The position numbers and the translations under genes are program-made. From NCBI GenBank assembly GCA_028279595.1, contig JANQNK010000020.1, positions 341,711 through 405,710 on the forward strand: a stretch of DNA of 64,000 bases, given 5' to 3'. The notes beneath the pieces are model-generated. The model was not told where the DNA came from. It made no database searches and worked only from the letters and a program-made list of their open reading frames with translations. Positions 7,349 through 27,710 of this stretch are shown piece by piece. How positions within the stretch are numbered: position 1 is the stretch's first letter; every line of letters starts with the position of its first letter. Origin of the DNA: Thermoplasmatota archaeon (GTDB lineage Archaea; Thermoplasmatota; JAKEGO01).

Positions 7349-8734
7349 TCAATGATTACCGTAATGCGTCTCTATGAACGCTTCCTTGATGCGCTTCAGG
7401 TCCTCCTTCGGGAGGGTGCTCATCAGCTTCCATCCCAGGTTGAGCGTGTCATCTATCGACCTGTCCTCGTGTTCTGCCTGCGTCACGAGCTCGTTCTCGA
7501 AGAGGTCGGTGAACTGCAGATAGAGCTTGTCCCTGTCCGTTAAAGCCTCTTCACCGACAACAGCGATCAGTTCCCTGAAGTCCTTGCCCTCGGCATAGGC
7601 GGAGTACATCTGGTTGGATACGTCGTCGTGGTCCTCGCGGGTCCTCTCCGGTCCGATGCCGTGCTTCATCAGTCTGGACAGGCACGGAAGCACGTCGACG
7701 GGAGGATAGATTCCTCTCCTGTGAAGGTCCCTCGACAGAACGATTTGTCCTTCAGTGATGTAACCTGTCAGATCGGGAATCGGGTGTGTGATGTCGTCGT
7801 CGGGCATCGTCAGGATCGGGATCTGCGTTATGGAGCCCTCCTTCCCGAATATTCGACCTGCGCGCTCGTAGATCGATGCGAGGTCGGTGTACATGTACCC
7901 TGGATATCCCCGTCGTCCGGGAACCTCCTCGCGCGCTGCGGCGATCTCGCGGAGAGCCTCGGCGTAGTTCGTCATGTCCGTCAACACGACGAGCACGTGC
8001 ATGTCGAGATCGAAGGCTAGGTACTCCGCCGCTGTCAGGGCCATCCTCGGAAGGATGATCCTCTCGATGGCGGGGTCGTCGGCGAGGTTGATGAAGAGAA
8101 CGGACCTCTCGATGGCGCCGGTGTCCTCGAACTCGTGTACGAAGAAGTTCGCCTCCTCGGCCGTGATGCCCATGGCGCAGAAGACCACAGCGAACTCCTC
8201 GCCCTGACCCTTCACCGCGGCCTGCCTGGCTATCTGCGCGGCGAGGTTGTTGTGAGGCAATCCAGCACCGGAGAAGATAGGGAGTTTTTGTCCTCGTACG
8301 AGCGTGTTCATGCCGTCGATCGTGGATATTCCAGTCTGGATGAACTCCCGGGGGTACTCACGGGCCGTCGGATTGATCGGAGCGCCGTTGATGTCCTTCC
8401 TCTCGTCCGGCACGATCTCCATCCCGTCGTCCAGTGGCTGTCCCGTCCCGCCGAAGACCCGTCCGAGGATCTCCTTCGAGACCCCGAACTTGATGGTCTC
8501 TCCCGTGAAGCGGACCGCGGTGTCCTTGACGTCCACGCCCTTCGTTCCCTCGAAGACCTGGATGACGGCCCTGCTCTCGTGGACCTCAAGGACCTGTCCG
8601 TGGCGTGTGTCGCCGGTCCCGGTCTTGATCTTGACGAACTCGCCGAAGAAGACGTCGTCGACGCCCTCGACGACGATCAATGCTCCGGACGCCTCGATGA
8701 CGCTCCTGTAGTCGATGTTCTTGCTCGTGATCAT
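7349..8734 (-). CDS. atpB: A/V-type ATP synthase subunit B
   Basis: [56 protein letters not shown]. Confidence 0.98.
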
Positions 8735-10473
8735 TCCATCACCTCCAGGTTCGCCATCTCGTTCTCGAGCCTCTGCTCGATCTTCACGAACTCGGCCTCG
8801 TACTGGTCCAGCGGGATCCTGCCCATCCTGGCCAGGTCCTCACGACCCTTGACCGCCTTGATGGTCGTGATCTCGACGTTCCTGTCGAGGGCCTCCATCG
8901 CGAGGTCGTGGTACTTCATCATGATCCGGAGCATCTCGAACTGCTTCCTGTCGGAGCAGTAGGTGTCCACCGGATCGTAGGCGTGCTGCCTCAGGAAGTC
9001 CTCCCTGATGACCCTCGCGGCCTCAAGTACGACCTGGTCTGACGGCGGAAGCGCGTCCGGTCCAACGAGCTGGATGATGTCCTTGAGTTCGGCCTCCTTC
9101 TGGAGGAGCTGCATGGCCTTCTCCCTTGTGGAGTACCAGGCCGGGTCGACGTTGTCTGCCCACCAGCCCCTGACCTTCTGGAGATACAATGAATAGGATC
9201 GCAGCCAGTTGATGGACGGGAAGTGACGCCTGTCCGCGAGGTCGGCGTCGAGCGCCCAGAACACCTTGGCTATCCTGAGAGTGTTCTGCGTAACAGGCTC
9301 GGAGAAGTCTCCGCCTGGCGGCGACACCGCCCCGATGATCGAGATGGAACCCGACCGTCCCTGCACGACCTCGACCTGACCGGCCCGCTCGTAGAACTCC
9401 GCAAGCCTGGTCGCCAGGTAGGCTGGGTAACCCTCCTCGCCGGGCATCTCCTCGAGACGGCCCGAGATCTCCCTCAGGGCCTCGGCCCATCGGGACGTCG
9501 AGTCAGCCATCAGGGCGACGTTGTAGCCCATGTCGCGGAAGTACTCGGCTATCGTGATACCAGTGTAGATGGAAGCCTCGCGTGCAGCCACTGGCATGTT
9601 CGATGTATTGGCGATGAGTATCGTCCTTGCCATGAGCTTCTCGCCGGTCCTCGGGTCCTCGAGTTCCGGGAACTCGTCGAGCACCTCTGTCATCTCGTTC
9701 CCGCGCTCGCCGCATCCGACGTAGACCACTATCTCGGCGTCGCTCCACTTCGCCAGCTGATGCTGGCTGACGGTCTTGCCCGTTCCGAAACCTCCGGGAA
9801 TGGCAGCGGTCCCGCCCTTCGCAATCGGGAAGAACGTGTCGAACACGCGCTGACCCGTTATCAGCGGTAGGAATGGATCGAACTTCTTGAGATACGGACG
9901 CTCGCGCCTTACGGGCCATCTCTGAGAGAGCTTGATCTCCGTCTTGCCGACCCGCGCAACGACGTCGTCGATGGAATATTCACCGGCTGACGCGATGAAT
10001 CCTACCCTTCCGCTAACGCCGGGAGGGACCATTATCCTGTGCTCGACGACCGGTGATTCCTGGACCTTTCCGAGGATCGCATTGCCTGAGACCTCGTCCC
10101 CGACGGACGCGGACGGCGTGAAGTGCCACATGTGGTCCCTGTTCAGCGGCGAGACGTTCACACCGCGATCGATGTACTCGCCCGTCAGCTCCTTGATGTC
10201 CGCCAGCGGCCGCTGGATACCGTCATAGATCGTACCGATCAGGCCGGGTCCGAGCTCGACGGAGAGCTGTTCCCCGGTTGTCTCCACCACGTCGCCAGGA
10301 CCTATGCCGCTCGTGTCCTCGTAGACCTGTATGGTCGCGATGTCGCGCTCCAGACCTATGATCTCGCCGATGAGTCCCTGCTCACCGACCGCCACGACGT
10401 CGTACATCCTGGAGCCTGTCATTCCCTCGGCCTTCACCACGGGACCCGCGATGAACACTATCCTTCCTGCCAT
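8731..10473 (-). CDS. atpA: A/V-type ATP synthase subunit A
   Basis: Walker [40 protein letters not shown]; no intein. Confidence 0.98.
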
Positions 10474-10477
10474 GTCA

Positions 10478-10804
10478 TCACCTTGTCACATCGATGCCCA
10501 CCGCCCGGCGGATGACCTTGGCCATCCTGTCCTCCTCCTCGCCGCCCTCGTCGGGCAGCTCCAGGAGGAGCGGTAGCATCCTCTTTTGATCGTGAAATCT
10601 GTCTATGTCCTTCCTTATCGCACCGGCGGCCGACTCGGAGATCACTATCATCCCGACCTCGGCGTTGCCGATGAGCTCCTTGAACCTCGTCCGTGCCAGA
10701 TCGCCGTCGACGTTCGCTCCGTCCTGGACCTCGGTCACGTCTGCCACTCCGCCCAGCCTGAACGCCGTCGCCATGGTCCTGCTCCCTATCACGGCTATCC
10801 TCAT
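10478..10804 (-). CDS. atpF: A/V-type ATP synthase subunit F
   Basis: Start at ATG 10804 (MRIAVIGS...F-x-LGGV), ATGA overlap with the atpC stop; ends IRRAVGIDV. Confidence 0.93.
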
Positions 10805-11832
10805 GCGGCCTCCTCCGTGATGGTAGCGCGTTCGACGGCCGTCCATTCCATTCCCGCTGCCGCACCCATGAGCACCGCCCTGACATTGGCGGTCTCGAAC
10901 TCCCGGAAGAGCAGGAACCTGGTCAGCGGACCGATGGACATGAACCGTCGGGTGTAGACCCTCTCGGCCATGTCGAAGGTGGTCCGATGCAATGCCCGCT
11001 CGATCTCCACGGGGTCCTTCAGCTCGGATATCCCGTCGAGGTCGGTTCCAGCAAGCGAGCCGACGCCCTTCGATGGGTCCGACGCGATCTCGGTCAGCAT
11101 CCACGGAGCCACCGTGTCCCCCTCGGGGATATCTAGTTCAGCTAGCTTGTCTCCAGTACCATGGAGATGCATCCTTATCGCGAGGAGGACCAGTTCGGAA
11201 TCGATCCTTGCAGTAAGGATATCGCGCAGCGGGCGTCCGGATATGCCACGCAGCCTTCCCGACGCTCGGGCCATGGCCCTGAGGTACGCGGCGTCGAGGT
11301 CAGCGTCCCTGGGTTCGTCGACGACCTCGCCGATCTCCGCCAGATACATCGACATCAGTTCGCCGGCGGTCTCGCTCCTGGACATCTTGCCTGCAAGCGT
11401 GCTGTCGATCCTGCCAACCGGGTCGATGGTCACCTCGTTGCCGTCCTCGAGGGTCGCACATGCGTCCCTGACCTCGTCGATCTCGTGGGACATCATCATG
11501 ACCTGGTAGAACGGCCGTACGCGCTTGGGAACGACCTCGAGGGCCTCTCCGAGCAGTTCGCGGTTCGCCTGCTTCATCCGGGAGTCCGCTTCGTCGATCC
11601 CGGCGGCGTCCTCTATCGGGAAGTACCTGGTGGCGAGCCTCTTTGCAGCCTCCCTACGGTCGCCTGTCGCAAGCGCGTCGGCGAGCCTCGTGGAGGACAT
11701 GTTCGGGTTCCCTATGACATTGAACCTGGTGTTCAGATAGATCAGCTTGATCGAGAAGTACCTGACGAGCAGCACTATCATGACGGCGGATGGTATGCCG
11801 ATGACGGCCGCGATCGTCAGGATATCAGTCAT
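10801..11832 (-). CDS. atpC: A/V-type ATP synthase subunit C (d), with N-terminal hydrophobic helix
   Basis: Position between E and F; YLNTR motif near the N-terminus and E-x-x-N-V-R near the C-terminus. Confidence 0.85.
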   Translation of the reverse strand: MTDILTIAAVIGIPSAVMIVLLVRYFSIKLIYLNTRFNVIGNPNMSSTRLADALATGDRREAAKRLATRYFPIEDAAGIDEADSRMKQANRELLGEALEVVPKRVRPFYQVMMMSHEIDEVRDACATLEDGNEVTIDPVGRIDSTLAGKMSRSETAGELMSMYLAEIGEVVDEPRDADLDAAYLRAMARASGRLRGISGRPLRDILTARIDSELVLLAIRMHLHGTGDKLAELDIPEGDTVAPWMLTEIASDPSKGVGSLAGTDLDGISELKDPVEIERALHRTTFDMAERVYTRRFMSIGPLTRFLLFREFETANVRAVLMGAAAGMEWTAVERATITEEAA

Positions 11833-12388
11833 CGCCGCCCTCCGAGACCTGGGCCTGGATGATCTCGCGGATGCGCGGTCTCATCTCTTCGACGATCGTG
11901 TCGAAACGCAGGTCGAGGACCTTTCCGTCGCCGGTGCTGAGGAGGATCCCACCGGCCCCTTCCACCGTCCCCGTGACATGCTTTCCGAAGGATTCGAGGA
12001 GCTCGAAGTCCGCCGAACGGCAGACCGAGACCTCGTAATCGCCCAAGAGTTCGTCGCCCACGGCGAGACATCTCTCGATGTAGGCGCGATACTTCTCTTC
12101 GTGGAGGTCAGATAACCTCTCGAGGGACCTCTCAACCGTCAGCGAGAGGACCTCGTCGAATGCCCTGCTGACCGTCCTCGACGCCTCGGCCCGGGCCTGG
12201 ACGACGACGCCGCGGGCCCTCCGCTCGGCCTCGACGACGCTGTCCTCGAAGGCCTCGGCCTCGGTACGCGCCCTCTCGAGTATCTCTTCCCTCACGGAGT
12301 CGGCCGCTGTCCTCGCCTCGTTGAGGATACCATCGGCCTCCTCCCTTGCCTGCGCCTCCAGGTGCCGCTTCAGCTCATCGAGCCCCAT
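11825..12388 (-). CDS. atpE: A/V-type ATP synthase subunit E
   Basis: MGLDEL N-terminal coiled coil; GGILL...D-x-x-F-D C-terminal motif; operon position. Confidence 0.9.
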   Translation of the reverse strand: MGLDELKRHLEAQAREEADGILNEARTAADSVREEILERARTEAEAFEDSVVEAERRARGVVVQARAEASRTVSRAFDEVLSLTVERSLERLSDLHEEKYRAYIERCLAVGDELLGDYEVSVCRSADFELLESFGKHVTGTVEGAGGILLSTGDGKVLDLRFDTIVEEMRPRIREIIQAQVSEGGDD

Positions 12389-12399
12389 CTACGGCACCC

Positions 12400-13206
12400 T
12401 CAGAACAGGCCTAGACCTATGATCGCTAGCAATCCGAGCACGAAGCCGAACATCGCGACGGCCTCTGGCATCGCGGAGATGATCAGCCCGCCGGAGAAGG
12501 CCTTCTCCCTCTTGCCGATGGCGCTGAGGGAGGCGCCCGCGGATATGCCCTGCGGGATGGCGGACACGCCGGTGATCCCGACGATCAGCGCGATGCCGAA
12601 CAGCGCTACCCACGAACCCGAGTTCATGGCAACGTCCGGAGGCACGCCGGCCCCGCCGATGAGCCCGACGCCCATCAGTATGAAGAAGGCGATCGCGAAC
12701 GCGTAGATGACCTGCGTGAACGGCAGTGCGGAGAGCATGAGGATCCGGCCGAGGCCGACCTCCTTCTCTGCTGACAGCGCCATCGCGGAGGTTCCTGCGA
12801 TGGCGAGCCCCATCGCGGACGCGATGCCGGCGATCGCCATCATCAATCCGATCGCGATGAGCGACATGTTCTGCAGTTCCGTCGGTCCTGCCACCTGCAC
12901 CTCGACGACGCTCGCGTACTCGCCGGTCGCGTTTGATATCACGAGCGACACCAGGTAGGTCCCGCCCGAGGTGTACCTGTGCGTCACGGTCTCCCCAGAC
13001 GCGGTGTCACCATCCCCGAAATCCCACATGTAGGTGGCGTTCAAACCTCCGTCTGGAGCCATGAACACGACGTTCTTCTCGACATCCACTTCGATGCTGT
13101 CGACGTCCTCGGTCACTGTATCGCCGACCATTATGTCGACGGCCGCCGCAAGGGGCAGCATCATGACGAGCAACAGCGCCAGCACAAGGCATCTCAAACC
13201 CTTCAT
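12400..13206 (-). CDS. atpK: A/V-type ATP synthase c/K proteolipid (4-TM, duplicated hairpin) fused to an N-terminal signal peptide and PKD domain
   Basis: aa1-22 signal-like (ends LAAA); aa~35-106 PKD (YMWDFGDG...VTHRYTSGGTYLVSL); aa~114-268 four Gly/Ala-rich helices with LPFTQVIY, IPQG and MPEA. Confidence 0.92.
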   Translation of the reverse strand: MKGLRCLVLALLLVMMLPLAAAVDIMVGDTVTEDVDSIEVDVEKNVVFMAPDGGLNATYMWDFGDGDTASGETVTHRYTSGGTYLVSLVISNATGEYASVVEVQVAGPTELQNMSLIAIGLMMAIAGIASAMGLAIAGTSAMALSAEKEVGLGRILMLSALPFTQVIYAFAIAFFILMGVGLIGGAGVPPDVAMNSGSWVALFGIALIVGITGVSAIPQGISAGASLSAIGKREKAFSGGLIISAMPEAVAMFGFVLGLLAIIGLGLF

Positions 13207-15095
13207 TTGTTTCCCTCCTCGAATTCAACCTTGGTGTAAAGTCTCTGAGCGTGAAACGGTTCGAACTGGCGTCCCTCGCCCTCGTAGAACCGCTTGTAGA
13301 ACTCCACGAACTGGAGCCTCAGTGAATGGACACCCGCTCCCAGCGCCTGCAGGGCCAGGTTCCCCAGGTGTCCGCCTATCAAAAGGATCGTGATGACTAT
13401 CGCCGAGAGACCGATGGGAAGCATTCCCCCCATGGTCAGGGCGAAGGAGTTCAGCGCCATGGCGAGGAGCATGGTCGCCAGGCCGAGGGCCATTATCCTG
13501 ATGAACGACAGCGCGTCTCCGAGCATTCCTGTCACCTCGAACAGGAAGAAGAATGCGACGTCCACCAGTATGAGACATATCATCGCCAGTGTCATGAACA
13601 GGGCCGCCGTCTCGACAGCGGGCGGATACGACGCCTCGAACAGGAAGATGGTGATGAGCAGTATCCCCGCGGGGAGCAGCACTATCCACGAGACCCGCTT
13701 CAGCACGAAGTCCTTCCTCTTCCCGCTCCTTAGGTCGTTGATCCCGCCGAGGATGACGCTCACGTAGAGCATGATCGCCCCGATGAGTATGGACAGGACG
13801 ATGAGTCCGGTGACGTTCTCGATGAGGTCTATCGGAAGGACGATCCCGCCTATCTCCAGGTGGTAGAGCTGGTCCCGTCCGAAGACGGCGCTGTGCAGGT
13901 CTCCGAAGAAGGACCCAGTCAGGAAACCGACGATGGCCGTGGATGCCCCGAGCTCTATCCCTAGGATCGATGCGCCCTTCATCGCCGGACTGGACCTTCC
14001 GATGACCCTGTATCCGTAGATGGAGAGCCCGAGGATTATCAGGCCATAGCCCAGGTCGCCCAGCATTATCCCGAATATCAGTATGAACGTCATCGCCGTG
14101 AGGACCGTCGGGTCCACCTCGTTCCTCGACGGTGTGCCGTAGAGGCTCACGATACCCTCGAACGGTCGCGCCCATCCGGGGTTCCGTATGTAGGTGGGGG
14201 CGTCCTCCCTCTCGCTGAGGTCGACGTGAGCCAGACCCTTGCTCGCCCGCCTGACGGACCGCTCGAGGCGGTCTGCGTCCCGGGCAGCGGCCCATCCGGT
14301 TATCTCGTAAGTGTATCTCCCCTCTGACAGGGTGCCCACGGCGGCGACCTGTTTGGCGGCCATGGCGAGCTGTTCCCTGAGAGCGAGGAAGCGGCCGTGG
14401 TCCGGCTGTAGAGCCGAAAGCTCCTCCTTCAGCCTTCCGATCTCCTCCTTGGCGGACTCGATCTCCTTGGCGAGCTCCATCGCACGGTCGGAAGGAAGTG
14501 CCGGAGCGGTAGGAAACTCGAGCCGGTCGAATCCGGCCAGCGCCTTCCTGTCCCTGACAGCTATCAGCGAGACCGCGCCGTCGTCCGAGGTCCATACCGC
14601 CTCCTCAGGAACGGTCTCCCCTGGTCTTATGAATGCTAGTGAGTAGCCTCTCCTCTCACCGACCTCGGACAGCCGGACCGGCGCTCCGAGCACCGGCTTG
14701 ATGGCATCGAGCTCCTCGTCAAGCTCGCGTCGCTTCGACCTCAGCTCCTTCAGGCGCGAGTGGGCCGCAATGGCCCAGTCGAGGTCGTCGGCGACCCGGG
14801 CCCCCTGCTCGAGGACCCTGTCGGGGGTTGTGAACGGCGATCCCTTGGGTACGATGGGCTCGGGAAGCAGGATGGACCTCATGGCCTCCTTCCTGTCCGC
14901 CGGCCTGGGTCTCGATGCGTTGACGAGCGTCGCGATCCGCTTCCTGGTCTTTACAAGCTGGGAGTGGAGTTCCGGCGCCTCTCCCTCGGCAACCTCGATC
15001 TCCATGATGCCCTTCTCGTGCAGGTGCGACAGCACTGGCTGTACCTTCGAACGTGGAACGGCTATCCTGACGTAGAGCATCCTCTCCGGTATCAT
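13203..15095 (-). CDS. atpI: A/V-type ATP synthase subunit I (a)
   Basis: YGTP...EVDPT, FGIMLGDLGYG, LSFIRIMAL (essential Arg), HSLRLQFVEF. Confidence 0.96.
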   Translation of the reverse strand: MIPERMLYVRIAVPRSKVQPVLSHLHEKGIMEIEVAEGEAPELHSQLVKTRKRIATLVNASRPRPADRKEAMRSILLPEPIVPKGSPFTTPDRVLEQGARVADDLDWAIAAHSRLKELRSKRRELDEELDAIKPVLGAPVRLSEVGERRGYSLAFIRPGETVPEEAVWTSDDGAVSLIAVRDRKALAGFDRLEFPTAPALPSDRAMELAKEIESAKEEIGRLKEELSALQPDHGRFLALREQLAMAAKQVAAVGTLSEGRYTYEITGWAAARDADRLERSVRRASKGLAHVDLSEREDAPTYIRNPGWARPFEGIVSLYGTPSRNEVDPTVLTAMTFILIFGIMLGDLGYGLIILGLSIYGYRVIGRSSPAMKGASILGIELGASTAIVGFLTGSFFGDLHSAVFGRDQLYHLEIGGIVLPIDLIENVTGLIVLSILIGAIMLYVSVILGGINDLRSGKRKDFVLKRVSWIVLLPAGILLITIFLFEASYPPAVETAALFMTLAMICLILVDVAFFFLFEVTGMLGDALSFIRIMALGLATMLLAMALNSFALTMGGMLPIGLSAIVITILLIGGHLGNLALQALGAGVHSLRLQFVEFYKRFYEGEGRQFEPFHAQRLYTKVEFEEGNK

Positions 15096-15409
15096 ATCGA
15101 TCCCAGCACCTCGTCGACCACGATGTCGGACATGGTGTCAACGGCCCTGGAACCCGCGCGGACCACGGAGGATGCGGTCGACTCCCCCTTCTCGCGAACG
15201 GACCTGGCATCCTCGGAGCCGTTGTGCTCGGCCTCTGCCGACCTCTTCCTGGACGATTCGCGTGCCTGCGAGACGATCCCGTCCGCCTCCTTCTCCGCCA
15301 CGGAGCGGGCCTCCTCGATCAGGCTTCCGGCCCTCGATCGGGCCTCCTCGATCGTGCCAAGGGCGTCCTTCTCGATCATATCGACGAGCGATCCCTGTTC
15401 CTTGACCAT
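15092..15409 (-). CDS. atpH: A/V-type ATP synthase subunit H/G (peripheral stalk)
   Basis: Short charged coiled coil (IEEARS repeats), first gene of the operon; ATG 15409 lies about 21 nt after TATA-like TTTATTAA. Confidence 0.8.
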   Translation of the reverse strand: MVKEQGSLVDMIEKDALGTIEEARSRAGSLIEEARSVAEKEADGIVSQARESSRKRSAEAEHNGSEDARSVREKGESTASSVVRAGSRAVDTMSDIVVDEVLGSI

Positions 15410-15700
15410 CGAGTCCGGTAACACTATTCATTAATAAAGGATTAACCTATGGAATGGGTCCACTGAAGGTGTCCGTCAGGCACCGTCTTGATGTACCCCG
15501 AACCCACTGATCCTCACTTTCCGGGCAAGAGTTACGGACTCGATGTTCGAATGTCGATTTTCAGGCCTTTTTCGGAGGAAATCGGGCATCTGCCGGGCGA
15601 AAGGTTAAAAAACACGCTTACCATCCCTTTGATAAGGATAGCGCATCGACCAGGCGGGACTATCACTGTCCACATCAAAAATACCGGAGAGAGGGGGAAC

Positions 15701-17689
15701 ATGGCATCCAAGTCCGAGGCTAAGGAGCTTCTGAAAAAGGCCGTTGAGCACGCGAAAGCTGAGGAGTACGACGAGGCGATGGAGTTCGTGGACGAGTCGC
15801 TCGGGGTAATAGAGACCCCGGAGGGATACACGAACAAGGGCCACATCTACCGGAAACTCAAGGATTGGAAGAATGCGGCCGAGAACTATTCCAAGGCGAT
15901 CTCGCTCGACGCAGACCACGAGAAGGCGATCTCTGGCCTCGAGGCGATGAAGAAGAAGCTTCCCGAGGAGGACTGGCCCTCCGAAGGAGGCGAGGAGCCA
16001 GCGCCGGTGAAGAAGAAGGAGAAGCCGGCCAAGAAGAAGAAGGCCCCCAAACCCGAGCCAGAACCTGAACCCGAGCCAGCTCCCGCTCCCGTCAAGAAGA
16101 AGAAGAAAAAGGCGCCGAAACCGGTCGAGAAGGAGCCGGAACCGGAGCCCGAACCCGAGGAGGAACCTGAGGAGCCAGCGCCCGAGCCAAAGAAGGCAAA
16201 GGTGAAGAAGGCACCGAAGGAGCCGGAACCCGAACCCGAACCAGTACCCGCTCCGGTGAAGAAGAAAAAGAAGAAGAAGGCCCCGAAGCCCGCACCGGAG
16301 CCCGAGAAGCCTAAGAAGAAGATGGCGAAGGGCAAGCCGGTCAAGAAGGGCAAGGTCAGGAGGCCCAAGGCGGATGTGGCCGCGGTCGAGGTGGTCGAGG
16401 TCGTCGAGGAGCCGCCCGAACCCAAGGCCGAGGAGGCCGAGGACGCCCTTCAGGACATCAAGGACGTTGTAAAGGACGATCATCTGAAGGCCATCATGAA
16501 ACTGTCCCCGGACATCCTGATGGACTTCGATCCGGACATTCACAGGAAGCTCGAGATATTCCACCACATCGAGGCCATGCTCGACAACTTCGAGGAGGCC
16601 GAGGACGCTGTGAAGAAGGAGCTCGCCGCCCGGGAGGAGAACATTCTCCGGAAGGAGCGGGAGCAGGAACTCCTGGACAAGGAGCTCGAGCTCAAGAAGA
16701 AGCAGGTAACCCAGCGCGTAGAGGAGTCCGACAGGCGCTTCATGGAGGCTGAGAAGCACCTGAAGGGCATCGAGGACAAGGGCAAGTCGGTGAAGGACAT
16801 GGAGTCCGCCATCACCGATAAGTCGAAGGCGCTGGAGGACAAGCTCGAGGAACTCAAGGTGACCACTGCGGCAGTGCGGAAGCGCCAGGCAGCCCTGGAG
16901 AAGAGGGAGGCCGAGATGAAGAAGATGGAGAAGAAGCTTCGCAAGGAGTTCGAATCCGCCTCCGCAGACGTAAAGGACAAGGAGAAGGAGCTCGACACAC
17001 TTCTTTCCGCAAGGCAGATCGCCGAGCAGGAGATAGACAAGGAGAAGTCGGAGATCGAGGCCAAGTTCAAGAAGCAGATCGCGAAGCTCCAGGCCGAGCT
17101 CAAGAAGGAGCGCGAGGTCGCCAAGAAGCAGAGCGGCGTCGTCAAGAAGGCCAGGGGCGCCCTCTCGAAATCTAAGGCTGACCGCGAGGAGCTCATGGCC
17201 GCCCTCGGCAAGAGGGAGGCCGAATCGCTGCAGCTCAAGGAGAAGCTGGAGACGCTCCAGGCCTACCTCGTCGAGAACGAGAAGCTCCTGAAAGCCCGCG
17301 TCGGACGCGCGGCGGCCGACAGGGAGAAGGCCCCGGAGAGGGCGAAGGAGCTCGAGGAGGAGGAGACCGAGATCACCGAGCGCGTCAAGGAGCTCGAGAC
17401 GGCAGTCGAGGACACCATCGAGGCGCCCGAGGAGGACGACCTCGATGAGGTCGATCTCGGGGACCTCGACGAGATGGACATCGACGTCGACGACCTAGAT
17501 CTCGAGGCCGAGGCCGACGATCTCGCGGCGCAGTACGACGCCGAGGAGGCCGAGAAGGCCAAGGATGAGAAGAAGGAGGAACCCGCGGAGGACGACCTGG
17601 GAGACGTCGACCTCGGGGACCTCGACCTGGACGACATGGACCTCGACATCGAGGACATGGACGACGATCTGCTGGCAGAGCTCGAGTGA
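15701..17689 (+). CDS. TPR + Pro/Glu/Lys low-complexity linker + long coiled coil + acidic tail protein
   Basis: Start moved to ATG 15701 (SD-like GAGGGGG). TPR-like GYTNKGHIYRKLKDWKNAAENYSKAISLD; PEPEPE/KKKKKK repeats; E/K/L heptads; duplicated D/L-rich tail. Confidence 0.8.
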   Translation: MASKSEAKELLKKAVEHAKAEEYDEAMEFVDESLGVIETPEGYTNKGHIYRKLKDWKNAAENYSKAISLDADHEKAISGLEAMKKKLPEEDWPSEGGEEPAPVKKKEKPAKKKKAPKPEPEPEPEPAPAPVKKKKKKAPKPVEKEPEPEPEPEEEPEEPAPEPKKAKVKKAPKEPEPEPEPVPAPVKKKKKKKAPKPAPEPEKPKKKMAKGKPVKKGKVRRPKADVAAVEVVEVVEEPPEPKAEEAEDALQDIKDVVKDDHLKAIMKLSPDILMDFDPDIHRKLEIFHHIEAMLDNFEEAEDAVKKELAAREENILRKEREQELLDKELELKKKQVTQRVEESDRRFMEAEKHLKGIEDKGKSVKDMESAITDKSKALEDKLEELKVTTAAVRKRQAALEKREAEMKKMEKKLRKEFESASADVKDKEKELDTLLSARQIAEQEIDKEKSEIEAKFKKQIAKLQAELKKEREVAKKQSGVVKKARGALSKSKADREELMAALGKREAESLQLKEKLETLQAYLVENEKLLKARVGRAAADREKAPERAKELEEEETEITERVKELETAVEDTIEAPEEDDLDEVDLGDLDEMDIDVDDLDLEAEADDLAAQYDAEEAEKAKDEKKEEPAEDDLGDVDLGDLDLDDMDLDIEDMDDDLLAELE

Positions 17690-22045: not shown

Positions 22046-23008
22046 ATGGCGAAGAAGACTGGCAGCAAGAGTGAGCTCACTTCCAGCGAAGCCTTCAAGT
22101 TCTTCGCCAACTTCGTGATCATCCTCACTGCACTGTTCGTCGTCAATATCGGGACGCTCATGCTCGTCTCGGACGAGTACTACGACGAGAACTCGCTGCT
22201 TCCACTGCAGGCCTTCGAGACCCGCATCGTCTATGACCTCCAGAGGGCGATGGGTTACGACGTCGAGCTCCAGTACTCCGACGAGAACGTCGGCATCCAC
22301 CACAGGATAATCGTGGAGTACGACGGCGACCTCAACGGGACGCTTACCTACAATGCGTGGGAATACTTCATCGAGACCCCGATAGACAGGAACGTGACCG
22401 TCTACACCCACGAACTCCAGGTGGACGTCAGGAAGATGGATGGCGGCAATGGCAACATGACCGTGACCGTCATGCGGGGGAACAAGGTCATCCAACACGC
22501 TTATACAGGCTCGAGCGGCGTCCGGCTCGAGTTCACCATCGAGGTGGACAACAAGAGGTACCTCGACGAACCCACTGTCCTTCATTATCCGGACATGGAG
22601 GGAAACGGTGAGAGGGCCCAGGGGATCGAGATCACCGGCATCTGCGCCGGACTCAGGGAGATGGCCGTCATTGCGACGCTCGTGCTCCTCGTGGGAGGGG
22701 TCAGGTGGCGACTGAAGTTCAAGTGGGCCGGCATCCTCGTGGGACTGATCTTCCTCGAGAACCTACTGAGGATCTTCCTGATCCACCCGCTGTCCCTGGC
22801 CTTCGGCTGGGACTTCGCGTGGAACACTTTCCACCAGTTCTTCTGGGAGTTCGGTCAGCTCCTCTCCATCATGGTCCTCTTCCTTCTCTGGTTCATGTTC
22901 GTCGCGATGAGGGACCCCGTCCGCCCAGGCTGGGGCGAGCTCAACATAAAGTATCCGAAGCGCCCGCTCAGGTTCGGCCGGCTCCTTCCGATCCCCAGGC
23001 GGTCCTGA
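22046..23008 (+). CDS. archaeosortase/exosortase family transpeptidase
   Basis: EITGICAGL (catalytic Cys), ENLLRI (N-x-x-R), TFHQ (His), in a multi-TM protein. Confidence 0.85.
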   Translation: MAKKTGSKSELTSSEAFKFFANFVIILTALFVVNIGTLMLVSDEYYDENSLLPLQAFETRIVYDLQRAMGYDVELQYSDENVGIHHRIIVEYDGDLNGTLTYNAWEYFIETPIDRNVTVYTHELQVDVRKMDGGNGNMTVTVMRGNKVIQHAYTGSSGVRLEFTIEVDNKRYLDEPTVLHYPDMEGNGERAQGIEITGICAGLREMAVIATLVLLVGGVRWRLKFKWAGILVGLIFLENLLRIFLIHPLSLAFGWDFAWNTFHQFFWEFGQLLSIMVLFLLWFMFVAMRDPVRPGWGELNIKYPKRPLRFGRLLPIPRRS

Positions 23009-23051: not shown

Positions 23052-26000
23052 TCAGTCGTCCTCACCGACGATGACGATACCTGAATCGTCGATCTCGAGG
23101 ACCTCGTCGCCGGCCTCTCCGTCCTTCTCCTTTTCTGCCGGCTCCCCCTCTCCCTCGGCGGTCTCGCCGTCCTTGGCGGCCTCCTTCTCGGCAGCCTTGG
23201 CCTTGATCTTCGGAAGGGTTATGTGTCGCCTGCCGAACAGGAGTGCGAGGATGACCACGGCGACAGCCAGGATAGCCAATGACGTCAGGTTGCTGGTTCC
23301 GTCCTCCTCGGCCTCCTCGACGTCCAGCCGTATGCCCCTCTTGTTGTTCCTCTCCGACGACTCGTTCACCTCGTCGTCCGGGTCGACGATAGCCTCAAGG
23401 TCGTAAGCACCGGCCTTCCTCGGGGTCCAGTAGAGGCTGATGGTGTCGCTCTCGCCTGCCTCCAGCTTGATCCTGTCGGAGTCGAGCTGCTCATCGGTCG
23501 CGGAATCGACAAGGACCACGTCCACGTATTCGGAGTCCACAACGCCCGAGTTCTCGACCGTCACCTGAATCTCGACCTCGCTGTCCACCACCGGGTCCGA
23601 AAGGACATCGATGTAGGTGACGTTGAAATCGGGCTGTTCCTCCACCACTCGCAGGGTGACCGAGTAGTCGTTGTTGTCCTCGTTGTCCTCATCTATCTCG
23701 TCATCCGGATCGACCGCCACCGTGATGCGGTGGGACCCGGTCTCCCTCGGGACCCAGAATACTGTCCACTGGTGGTCCGTTCCCCCGGCAACGAAGGTCC
23801 TTTCCTGGTCGGAGGACTCGTCGATCGCGTTCCCACCAGTGTACTCGGAGTCGAAGGTGATGTCGAAGAGCACGGCAAGGTTGCCGGAGTTCCTGACCAG
23901 TACGGTCACCTCGATGGTGCTGTCGACCTGGAGCATCTCGTCGGAATAGACGGTGACCACGGTCAGGTCTGCCGCCTGTACCCTGACCTTGATGCTGGCA
24001 TTGTAGGTCGCGTTTAGTGCCTCTATCGTCAGGTTGAACCAGTGATCGCCCAGCGATGTCCCGTCGGGGATGTAGGGTGTGAATGTCCAATCGAGGGAGT
24101 CGCCGTACAGAAGTAACCACTCGATGTCGTCGTCCCTCGTGAAGTTCTGCGATTCGTAACTGTCCTCGAGAACGAGCTCGAAGCTCCAGTTCCCGCTAAG
24201 GTCGGTCTCGACCGTCACCGACAGCTCCTCGTCCCCGTTCCCGTCGTTGTCACAGCTGAATTCGGAAGGGACGACGGTGCCGTTCGGAGTGAAGTGCCTG
24301 GCATCCGGCGCCTTGGTGAAGGTCAACTCGCTCCGATGCACGACGACCACGTTGAAGAGGAGTTCTATCGGCGGCCTGTCCTCCCCCCTCTCGGAACGGC
24401 CGTTGAGAAGGATGCTGTAGGGTTCGCTGTCCGACTCGGCCTCGTCGTAGACCGGGATATGCATCACGAGATCCACCGAACCCGATGCCGGCAGCGAGAC
24501 GCCGTCCACCTCGTCCCCGTCGTCCGTGATGAACGCGTCGGGCCAGGAGGCGTATCCGATGATCTGGAACGTAATGTTGTTCTCCCTGTCGTCCTCGTTC
24601 ACCACCGTGAAGTCGAACTCCACCTCGTCCCCGTTATCGGCATACTGGAGGTCGTCCCCTTCGATCTCCATGTAGAAGTAGTACTGGCTGAAGTTGAGCT
24701 CGATGGCGCCCACCCATGGGCCGTCCTCGGAGAACACGATGACCTCCACCTGCTCCGTCGTGCGGTTGATGCCGTCGCTGGCGTAGATCCTCAGGACCTC
24801 ACCCTCCCGATAGGACGAGATCACCTCCGACAGGTCTATGTCGAACTCGCCGTCCTCGTCGGCCTGGAACTTGATCTCGGTGGCGGTCCTGACCACGGTG
24901 ATGTTGACGTGGGCCTTGGGAGCGGGTTCGCTCCCTCCAGGCTGGTACACGGTACCAATAACGTGGTACTCGGCGTCCGTGTTGGACGGGATCGTCTCGA
25001 CGGTGACCGAGATGTTGTTGTCAGATTCGTGGACCTCGTGGACGTCGTCCTTGGGGTCTATCGCGACGGTGATGTTCGCGTCGCCCTCGAACGTGACCGT
25101 GAAATTGACGAGCGTCGACTCGCCGAGCTGCATGAAGGCGTCCTTGGTCTCGGTCTCGACGTCGTCGATCAAGAGCGTGACCGGCGTCCATCCGCCGATC
25201 TCTCCGCCCGAGTAGGCCGAAAGGGATATCCTCGTCTCACGTCCAGCTATCGGATGCTTCGATGTCCCCGGTCCGACGCGAACGCCGTCCTCCCTGTAGA
25301 ACCTGATCGACTCGGCCTCGAAGTCGGGGACCTGTATCTCGATATCGATGGTGGCGTCCGTGGTGCCGGACGAGAACTGCGCCTCGACACCGATGGTCTC
25401 CGTCCCCTCGTCGATGTCGGGAGCCGTGACGTCGATCACCACCTCTGCGGAGGAGAAGGCGCCTACTGTCACCACTGGCTGCTGCGCCTCGCCTTCCCAT
25501 GCGCCGGGTGCGTCCACCACTATGGTCGCGTTGTCCGGGGCATTGCCGTCGTTGAAGAGGACGAGTGTGAAGTTGCCCGTCTGGTTCGACGGAATGCCGC
25601 CCGATATGTTGGACCCGAACCGCATGTCGTAGGTCGGATCGAGGAATACGAAGGCCGTCTCGTTCTTGTTGAGAAGTGCGGTCTCGGCGCTGACGGTGAT
25701 GTTGTACAGGCCGGAGACGTAGGACTGGTCCGGCGTGATGGTGAGGTTGACCGTTGCATTCCCGCCGGACGGGATGTCCACATGGTCGTCATCGAGGTCC
25801 GTGGTCCAGTCGACCGGTCCGACCGCCGAGAGGTTGACGTTAACCTGTTCGGAACCCCTGTTCTCGAGGTCCACGGTGAGGTCCACCGAGCCCTCGGGAT
25901 CGACCGAGGCGTTCAATGGCGTCACATTGATGTAAAGGACCTGGGAGACGTCGATGGTGGTGGTCATGTTGTTGTTGCTCTCGTCCGATTCATCGATGTT

Positions 26001-27710
26001 CTGCTCCGGGTCCACTGCGATCTTGATCTCGTAGGTCCCGCTCGCCTTCGGGCGCCAATCGTACTTGACGGTCCTCCGGTCGCCTCCCCCGCCGGGTCCT
26101 ATGGTCTTGCTCTTGATCGGGTCGCCGTTCACGATGAGGTGGACCTTGACCGAGTCAGCTTCCTTTCCGCCGGAGTTCTCGATGATGGCCGTGATGTTGA
26201 CCGGGGATCCCTCCTCCGTCGTCGGCGGGTCTATCTCGATGTCGACCGGCCTGAGGTCGGCGATGTCGTGCGTGAACAGAAGGCTACCAGCCAGCAGCTC
26301 GCAGTAGAGGTCGTTGCCCATGTTGAAGACCGCCGGCTGGGCCCACAGCCTGTAGGGCAGGTCGTCCTCGAAAAGCAGGTCCCCGTTGTCACCGTCAAGG
26401 ACGAATAGCGTGTTGCTCTGTGCGCCCACGATGTCCTTGGTCCCATCCCCGTCGACGTCGATGAGTACAGGCGACGACACGGCACGCCCCTCGTCGAACG
26501 AGCTTCCCGAATAGTAGTTCAGGGTCTCCCTCCAGATCATGTCGCCATCCTCGCCGGCCCAGACGGTGACGTCGACGTTGTAGTCCTGGATGCTCCGGTC
26601 CCATGCGATGACAGCGACCTCGAGGTCCCCGTCGCCGTCCAGGTCGCTCCCCGCCGGAGTGGCCTCGAGCTGTCCGTCGATGTCGCCGCTCACGGCGGTC
26701 GTCCACATGAGGTCCATCTCGTCGTCGTAGGCATAGAGGACGCCGTTGTTGGCGCTGTCCTGGAACGGTATCGGGAAGATCACCTCCTTTCCGTTGGAGG
26801 CGTTCTTGTCGAGGTCGAGCACCGTCGGACTGGGCGGGATGTGGCCCGATCCCGCGTAATCGGTCATCGTCTTCGACTCCGAGAACTTCTCGAAGCCGGA
26901 TTTGGCGTTGAACCTGTAGAAGTATATCATCTCGCCGGTCCAGTCGACGGAGGTGGCGACGATGTCGTTGCTGGACCCGCTTGGCATGGCCGCGGGGGTC
27001 GAGACGTCCTCGCCGTCGAGCTCGAGGCTCCAGACCTCGTCCTTGTTCCACGCCTTAACTACGAATAATGTGTCCCCGGCGCCGATGGCGATCACGTCGC
27101 CGACGTCCTGCACGGACATCATGGTCGGGTTGGAGTAGTTTATGGGCAGATTGAGGTTCTTCCGCCATAGCCGGTCGTCCTGATGGTTGCTGGAGGACCA
27201 GCTGAAATCGTCACCGTCATACATGATGTAAGGGGTGTAGGCGTAGAGCGTACCCTTGTCGTTCTCGTCCGTCGTGCCGAACACGATGTCCTGCGTCCCA
27301 TCGTCGTCGACGTCCGCCACGAGGGGGCCCGAGACGAACATATCATTGTCGGTCCCGTTCCCGTCGATCTCGTCCACGTCGAGGAGCCACATGGTGTCGC
27401 CGGACCGTCCGTCGACTATGTACAGGAATCCGCCGACGCCGTAGGCGACGTGGAATGGCTGGACCCCGGACGCGTCGGACCCGTTGATGAAATCGATGTT
27501 GTCGGTGAAGTTGCCCTGGGCGACGGCAAGCCCCGATACGGGGTCGTCCTTGTCCCAGAGCTCGACCGGTTCGGGGATCGAGGTCTCGACCGAGGCGGTG
27601 GAGGTGTGCCTGCTGTCATGTCCGAAACCGGGCCAATCGACGTCGTCGATGGCCACGACCGAGGGTATCGCTGTGATCGCGAGTATCATGATGATGACGG
27701 TCCACCGCAT
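23052..27710 (-). CDS. large surface protein: PQQ/FG-GAP beta-propeller + CARDB/Ig repeats + C-terminal TM and acidic tail
   Basis: Signal peptide; WPGFGHDSRHT; D-[VL]-D-G-D-G-x-x-[DE]-[IV]-V motifs; repeated VDP-x-x-x-[IV]-x-E-x-x-E-x-NN CARDB motif; TM LAILAVAVVILALLFGRR. Confidence 0.88.
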   Translation of the reverse strand: MRWTVIIMILAITAIPSVVAIDDVDWPGFGHDSRHTSTASVETSIPEPVELWDKDDPVSGLAVAQGNFTDNIDFINGSDASGVQPFHVAYGVGGFLYIVDGRSGDTMWLLDVDEIDGNGTDNDMFVSGPLVADVDDDGTQDIVFGTTDENDKGTLYAYTPYIMYDGDDFSWSSSNHQDDRLWRKNLNLPINYSNPTMMSVQDVGDVIAIGAGDTLFVVKAWNKDEVWSLELDGEDVSTPAAMPSGSSNDIVATSVDWTGEMIYFYRFNAKSGFEKFSESKTMTDYAGSGHIPPSPTVLDLDKNASNGKEVIFPIPFQDSANNGVLYAYDDEMDLMWTTAVSGDIDGQLEATPAGSDLDGDGDLEVAVIAWDRSIQDYNVDVTVWAGEDGDMIWRETLNYYSGSSFDEGRAVSSPVLIDVDGDGTKDIVGAQSNTLFVLDGDNGDLLFEDDLPYRLWAQPAVFNMGNDLYCELLAGSLLFTHDIADLRPVDIEIDPPTTEEGSPVNITAIIENSGGKEADSVKVHLIVNGDPIKSKTIGPGGGGDRRTVKYDWRPKASGTYEIKIAVDPEQNIDESDESNNNMTTTIDVSQVLYINVTPLNASVDPEGSVDLTVDLENRGSEQVNVNLSAVGPVDWTTDLDDDHVDIPSGGNATVNLTITPDQSYVSGLYNITVSAETALLNKNETAFVFLDPTYDMRFGSNISGGIPSNQTGNFTLVLFNDGNAPDNATIVVDAPGAWEGEAQQPVVTVGAFSSAEVVIDVTAPDIDEGTETIGVEAQFSSGTTDATIDIEIQVPDFEAESIRFYREDGVRVGPGTSKHPIAGRETRISLSAYSGGEIGGWTPVTLLIDDVETETKDAFMQLGESTLVNFTVTFEGDANITVAIDPKDDVHEVHESDNNISVTVETIPSNTDAEYHVIGTVYQPGGSEPAPKAHVNITVVRTATEIKFQADEDGEFDIDLSEVISSYREGEVLRIYASDGINRTTEQVEVIVFSEDGPWVGAIELNFSQYYFYMEIEGDDLQYADNGDEVEFDFTVVNEDDRENNITFQIIGYASWPDAFITDDGDEVDGVSLPASGSVDLVMHIPVYDEAESDSEPYSILLNGRSERGEDRPPIELLFNVVVVHRSELTFTKAPDARHFTPNGTVVPSEFSCDNDGNGDEELSVTVETDLSGNWSFELVLEDSYESQNFTRDDDIEWLLLYGDSLDWTFTPYIPDGTSLGDHWFNLTIEALNATYNASIKVRVQAADLTVVTVYSDEMLQVDSTIEVTVLVRNSGNLAVLFDITFDSEYTGGNAIDESSDQERTFVAGGTDHQWTVFWVPRETGSHRITVAVDPDDEIDEDNEDNNDYSVTLRVVEEQPDFNVTYIDVLSDPVVDSEVEIQVTVENSGVVDSEYVDVVLVDSATDEQLDSDRIKLEAGESDTISLYWTPRKAGAYDLEAIVDPDDEVNESSERNNKRGIRLDVEEAEEDGTSNLTSLAILAVAVVILALLFGRRHITLPKIKAKAAEKEAAKDGETAEGEGEPAEKEKDGEAGDEVLEIDDSGIVIVGEDD

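Follow-up and report, generated by a model that had tools for sequence, protein, structure and literature searches.

Few parts of cell energetics are as conserved as the c ring, which is drawn with a bare outer face. In the window analyzed here, that is, the whole stretch of 64,000 nucleotides from a Thermoplasmatota archaeon, an earlier note had read the rotor subunit gene as a fusion of an exported PKD domain to a four-helix proteolipid. Is this fusion real, where would the additional domain lie, and what could it do on a rotating ring? The gene, atpK, is part of an atp operon whose features are listed below.

15092..15424, minus strand: atpH/G, peripheral stalk subunit (Pfam match weak, below cut-off)
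13203..15095, minus strand: atpI, subunit a/I, essential Arg kept at about R533 (Pfam)
13213..13220, minus strand: Shine-Dalgarno sequence GAGGAGGG, within the atpI 3' end, 6 nt upstream of the atpK ATG
12400..13206, minus strand: atpK, signal peptide plus PKD plus four-helix subunit K, 268 aa (open reading frame and Pfam)
11825..12388, minus strand: atpE (Pfam)
10801..11832, minus strand: atpC (Pfam)
10478..10804, minus strand: atpF (Pfam)
8731..10473, minus strand: atpA (open reading frame; orthologue annotated in L164)
7349..8734, minus strand: atpB (open reading frame; comparison with L164)

The operon order, H-I-K-E-C-F-A-B, is normal, with atpK between atpI and atpE. The atpD gene lies apart from the operon, on another contig of the window's genome (G000:C11:109147-109719), and no partner gene for the PKD domain was found within the operon. 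Divergent from it, window positions 15488-17689 (plus strand) encode a protein of about 690–730 aa that is conserved in L164, with a TPR-like start, Pro/Glu/Lys-rich repeats, a long coiled coil and a very acidic tail. Further along, positions 22046-23008 (plus strand) encode a 320-aa membrane protein that has no Pfam match. Its Cys-Ala-Gly motif followed by Arg and His presumably recalls exosortase/archaeosortase, and its gene adjoins that of a 1552-aa secreted CARDB/FG-GAP protein (23052-27710, minus strand).

On the minus strand, the atpK frame runs uninterrupted for 268 codons, from 13206 down to 12400. As the earlier note had claimed, both parts lie in one chain: Pfam finds PKD (PF00801) at residues 44–105 (E 5.6e-14, 52.3 bits versus a gathering cut-off of 23.5) together with two stretches of ATP-synt_C (PF00137, E 3.6e-15, above the curated cut-offs). 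Moreover, GC3 is even across the junction of PKD and K (0.82/0.80/0.88). The proposed long start is also supported by the sequence, in which the atpK ATG (13206-13204) overlaps the atpI stop as ATGA (13203-13206) and follows the Shine-Dalgarno sequence listed above. An internal start at Met114 was rejected, because no Shine-Dalgarno sequence is present in the 20 nt before it and this Met is replaced by Trp in two homologues of the alignment. In the genome G000, which is 86% complete, atpK is the only c-subunit locus with PF00137 that we found, and likewise only one c gene each was found in the relatives G001 and G002. As the product of the sole c gene, every protomer of the ring would therefore carry PKD.

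We then mapped the parts of the product onto the window, as follows.

13141..13206, minus strand: predicted Sec signal peptide, residues 1–22, with cleavage after Ala-Ala-Ala (inferred from sequence)
12886..13140, minus strand: PKD, an Ig-like beta-sandwich, residues about 23–107, with WDFGDG core and sequons N56 and N92 (Pfam, PDB matches, AlphaFold, Foldseek)
12403..12879, minus strand: subunit K, two fused hairpins (four helices), residues 110–268 (best structural match NtpK 2BL2)
12703..12726, minus strand: hairpin-1 Na+ ligands L161, T164, Q165 and Y168, equal to NtpK L61, T64, Q65 and Y68 (alignment)
12550..12552, minus strand: Q219, equal to NtpK Q110 (alignment)
12463..12465, minus strand: E248, the single ion-binding carboxylate, equal to NtpK E139 (alignment)

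The membrane part agrees best, in both sequence and structure, with the Enterococcus hirae rotor subunit NtpK (2BL2; 33% identity, TM 0.77 by target, in the PDB and Foldseek searches). We take NtpK Y68 to be one of its Na+ ligands. With the other NtpK ligands as listed in PMC2359735, all six ligand positions are present in subunit K, and the four in hairpin 1 are invariant in the nine homologues. The hairpin-1 position that corresponds to the Glu of hairpin 2 is occupied by F163; since hairpin 1 lacks a carboxylate, the subunit counts as a V-type c, in which four helices share one ion. By alignment, then, subunit K is of the NtpK type with a single predicted Na+ site, an identity that had been missed when the proteolipid was described, correctly, as having four transmembrane helices. 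Since E248 and the essential Arg of subunit I are intact, the enzyme looks ion-coupled and is apparently a working sodium-driven ATP synthase.

The exported part is equally well defined. The N-terminus had been called signal-like, and all homologues indeed keep the pattern of a basic n-region, a hydrophobic core and small residues at -3/-1 while varying the letters. The AlphaFold model shows beta strands with pLDDT 72–85 over residues 41–100, and PKDs of collagenase and of archaeal S-layer proteins are matched by PDB sequence search and by Foldseek. The last strand runs straight into helix 1 through a linker of only 3–5 residues, in which Gly107 alone is invariant. All three sequons named in the earlier note (N56, N92 and N113) are present. 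The sequon at N56, or one two residues later, is kept in 9/9 homologues (shifted in two) and that at N92/94 in 7/9, and N113 is restricted to the three closest homologues and is unlikely to be glycosylated, because its position is the beginning of helix 1. Immediately ahead of the WDFGDG core, a sequon occurs in 9/9 PKD-bearing K versus 9% of 2194 generic PKD motifs, a purely descriptive count, as these kin are not independent. The oligosaccharyltransferase AglB is encoded in the genome; its AglB/STT3 match (G000:C4:30212-31558) lies within an open frame that, at 2441 codons, is unusually long. In line with the earlier proposal, the conserved sequons and the AglB gene point to a domain that is probably glycosylated, and conservation and topology support its outward orientation on each protomer. 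The same genome has at least 12 other PKD motifs, plus DxDxDG repeats in other proteins. The net charge of the domain (-13) and its total sequon count equal those of the other PKDs in the genome, so neither indicates a special function. For this reason a special "cation antenna" or special glycan load was rejected.

The fusion recurs in nine distinct sequences, 43–94% identical, from independent NCBI, JGI and ENA assemblies. Identities to the atpK product are 93–94% for P0172 and P0173, 84% for P0002, 69% for P0003 and P0174, 63% for P0004, 60% for a Thermoplasmata MAG (JAKEGO01) and 43% for G002. The homologous genes lie between atpI and atpE wherever the contig extends far enough, and the fusion was present in 3/3 genomes examined from the GTDB class, a small uncultured group. 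This comparison of sequences confirms that the fusion is real and not an assembly chimera. A tree built from the membrane part only unites the nine in one clade (support 98/95), which places a single fusion event at the base of the class or earlier. A profile search of 50%-identity representatives added no further fusion, its results being dominated by multi-PKD proteins, and none was among the matches listed from metagenomes, which were mostly generic PKD. The ESM Atlas gave no feature match and no PKD plus c cluster by shape, though small clusters cannot appear there.

Selection acts differently on the two parts. Against the closest relative with DNA available, dN/dS is 0.24 for PKD, close to subunits E (0.21) and C (0.17) and above K (0.01); for P0004 versus L001 it is 0.11 for PKD and 0.09 for K. 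Over the closest pairs, those with G000 and P0004/L001, PKD ranges from 0.11 to 0.33 and K from 0.01 to 0.09; in more distant pairs PKD reaches 0.5–0.8, with dS saturated. Between G000 and P0002, 50/86 residues are identical in PKD versus 158/160 in K. The invariant PKD columns are mostly fold-core residues, and no obvious conserved surface patch was found among the nine homologues. Judged from these substitution patterns, PKD is under purifying selection: its fold is kept and its surface drifts, faster than K.

We further surveyed the c/K subunits of Thermoplasmatota and found a signal peptide in many lineages, with a variable slot behind it. That slot may contain an acidic tail of 7–20 residues (33 sampled), low-complexity acidic stretches, TSP3-like DxDxDG calcium repeats (at least five families, including EX4484-6-like MAGs), PKD (in the class of the window's genome) or, on c subunits with more hairpins, a PKD-like domain (G095, four hairpins; L078:863-2191) and a beta-sandwich (Aboo_1266 of Aciduliprofundum boonei, six hairpins; L079:969-2786). 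That other Thermoplasmatota fill the same slot with other domains had been overlooked in the earlier note. In many relatives, K has a signal peptide plus an acidic tail of 10–20 residues, or nothing, so an outer domain is dispensable for Na+ K rings in general. Folded outer domains were seen solely on c subunits with two or more hairpins; among single-hairpin c the domain count was 0/36 (signal peptide 16/36), likewise descriptive because kin are not independent, and such a distribution would be predicted for domains retained on a crowded ring.

One clade of PKD-bearing and Ig-like-bearing K was rejected (p-AU 0.0002) in a test that used the last four helices only, with approximate hairpin orthology. 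Resemblance of the A. boonei domain to PKD is weak (hhalign probability 25%, Foldseek E about 0.01). As the K parts are not one clade and the domains are weakly alike, the phylogeny points to separate recruitment of PKD and Ig-like domains from a pool of surface modules. For TSP3-type K one clade was not rejected (p-AU 0.07), and several origins are therefore not claimed for that type.

The survey also gave several observations on the subunits themselves. Loci L011, L012, L015, L018, L062-L077 and L168-L196 encode a four-helix K with signal peptide and a TSP3-like Ca-binding repeat module, which is duplicated in L188; 13 residues of these repeats are invariant across several families at 40–45% overall identity. 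The first hairpin has no Glu in the c of both A. boonei and G095. Nor has it one in a 966-aa subunit c with 12 fused hairpins (L081:1546-4443; G023:C67), which probably makes up a complete rotor ring as a single polypeptide; it is comparable to the K of Methanopyrus kandleri, which has 13 hairpins. Similar multi-hairpin chains are P0066 (1042 aa) and P0134 (784 aa). Two different four-helix K genes stand side by side in L021 (G011:C11), and bacterial NtpK homologues (L204-L244; Eubacteriales/Clostridia and Brevinema) have signal peptides and acidic tails of 20–60 residues.

What would such a domain do on a ring? The c-subunit N-terminus is outside and helix 1 lies in the inner ring. We assumed the ring size and dimensions of E. 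hirae NtpK, that is, ten copies and an outer diameter of about 8 nm. On these dimensions the attachment points are estimated to be about 1.7 nm apart, whereas ten domains of 2.5 nm fit only at a radius of about 4 nm. Ten PKD have a footprint of about 67 nm2, larger than the ring face (about 53 nm2), so they cannot all enter the lumen and must splay as a crowded collar. The earlier note had considered a plug of the lumen; one made by all ten was rejected on this ground. The route we propose is as follows. PKD would be exported by Sec, signal peptidase would cleave after residue 22, and AglB would glycosylate N56 and probably also N92. Helix 1 would halt transfer and end N-out as in every c subunit. 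On its short linker, the approximately ten PKD would splay into a close-set collar that crowns the outer face, keeps clear of subunit I and turns freely with the ring. PKD may set how helix 1 is oriented as it inserts, and the collar may brace or shield the outer, lipid-filled ring face. The domain itself may have been recruited from the host's surface-protein modules into a slot pre-made by the signal peptide. We thus tentatively favor a passive, structural collar that aids insertion and stabilizes or shields the ring, with glycosylation probable, a reading whose chance comes close to even.

Somewhat unlikely, yet the most serious of the alternatives, is a near-neutral passenger: a surface module shuffled into an exported N-terminus and retained for the sole reason that its misfolding or truncation would impair the insertion of an essential protein. 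The same slot is occupied by three module types, unrelated or distantly related to each other, all abundant in their hosts' surface proteins, and the much faster change of PKD than of K and its generic charge and sequon load suit this idea as well. However, clean deletion to a short tail would be simple and would save about 9 kDa on each of about ten copies, but no PKD loss is seen among the nine PKD sequences (two families), and the TSP3 type keeps invariant Ca ligands despite its low overall identity.

An active role is quite improbable; here the collar would attach to a partner, to Ca2+ or to the envelope, and would thereby regulate the motor or transmit torque to the outside. PKD domains do mediate binding in surface proteins, some of them bind Ca2+ (4aqo), and an alternative module in the slot is a Ca-binding repeat; yet the operon has no partner gene and the surface residues of PKD drift. 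For a crown of 4–10 nm turning at 350 rev/s we estimated a drag of 0.004–0.06 pN nm, which is below the ring's own membrane drag and, even at 10 nm, less than 0.2% of an assumed torque of 40 pN nm. Such drag is negligible; on this estimate a viscous brake is excluded, and the suggested load finds no support either. The further suggestion of coupling rotation to the envelope, as a tether or power take-off, is disfavored, since binding to a fixed envelope or S-layer would stall the cell's only ATP synthase, in which all coupling residues are kept.

Very improbable is a pro-domain for biogenesis only, which would aid export or folding and then be cut off to leave an ordinary mature ring. Proteolipids with cleaved leaders are generally known. 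The luminal region of eukaryotic Ac45 is also partly cleaved (PMC12292623). Against this, the short linker shows no conserved cleavage motif, and the lack of folded domains on single-hairpin c fits retention on the ring. Last, an assembly chimera or mis-called start is of negligible probability, given the same architecture between atpI and atpE, wherever both are shown, in independent assemblies, and the start signals and non-conserved Met114 described above.

Beyond the passive collar, a bolder generalization is that Thermoplasmatota repeatedly evolved a fused, glycosylated outer rotor collar (PKD, Ig-like or Ca-binding). It could form a second, ordered ring on which wide multi-hairpin rings depend for their assembly or stability, or a sensor of Ca2+ or a partner that tunes the motor, and would be the prokaryotic counterpart of the luminal rotor parts of the eukaryotic V-ATPase; we consider this unlikely. 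In any case, an ion-coupled ring whose protomers all bear a folded domain shows the outer face to be an evolvable display site and raises testable questions about the insertion, sealing and protection of wide V-type rings. A natural folded rotor tag could also help single-molecule rotation assays or cryo-EM. The fusion is conserved and surprising to specialists, and its function may prove modest.

Compared with known systems, E. hirae NtpK likewise has four helices and one Na+ site from L/T/Q/Y plus Q plus E, but it lacks both signal peptide and outside domain, and its G63 is F163 here. Prokaryotic proteolipids with a cleaved leader, for example in Thermus and Sulfolobus, share the signal peptide before helix 1, as do some bacterial K in our survey, but retain only a short tail and no folded domain. 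V-type c subunits occur in the A1AO synthases of Pyrococcus furiosus, Thermococcus onnurineus and Eubacterium callanderi, the last of which was shown to make ATP; they too have one ion site per doubled hairpin but, in the available part of the source, no reported folded ectodomain (PMC9171764). The combination of PKD with c/K was not found in the PDB, the design goes unmentioned in a 2026 preprint on rotary ATPase evolution, and the open literature searched yielded no relevant report of a PKD, leader or ectodomain on c/K. PKD on a rotor-ring subunit is thus a design new to that literature, the K and PKD families themselves being known. Glycosylation is also known for the luminal domain of eukaryotic Ac45. 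Ac45/Voa1 and the prorenin receptor sit within the c ring, turn with it and have luminal regions (PMC12292623), but they are separate single-copy subunits anchored inside the ring and are not fused to every c. Such luminal rotor parts may be regarded as the nearest functional analogy, with no homology implied. Closest in layout is Aboo_1266 of A. boonei (ADD09074.1), for whose outer domain we found no description in the open literature. Like the atpK product, it joins a signal peptide, a beta-sandwich of about 95 residues, a short linker and c hairpins, but it has six hairpins, its domain resembles PKD weakly and its K is not in one clade with the PKD-bearing K. With a comparable design in this cultured archaeon, the question is testable now.
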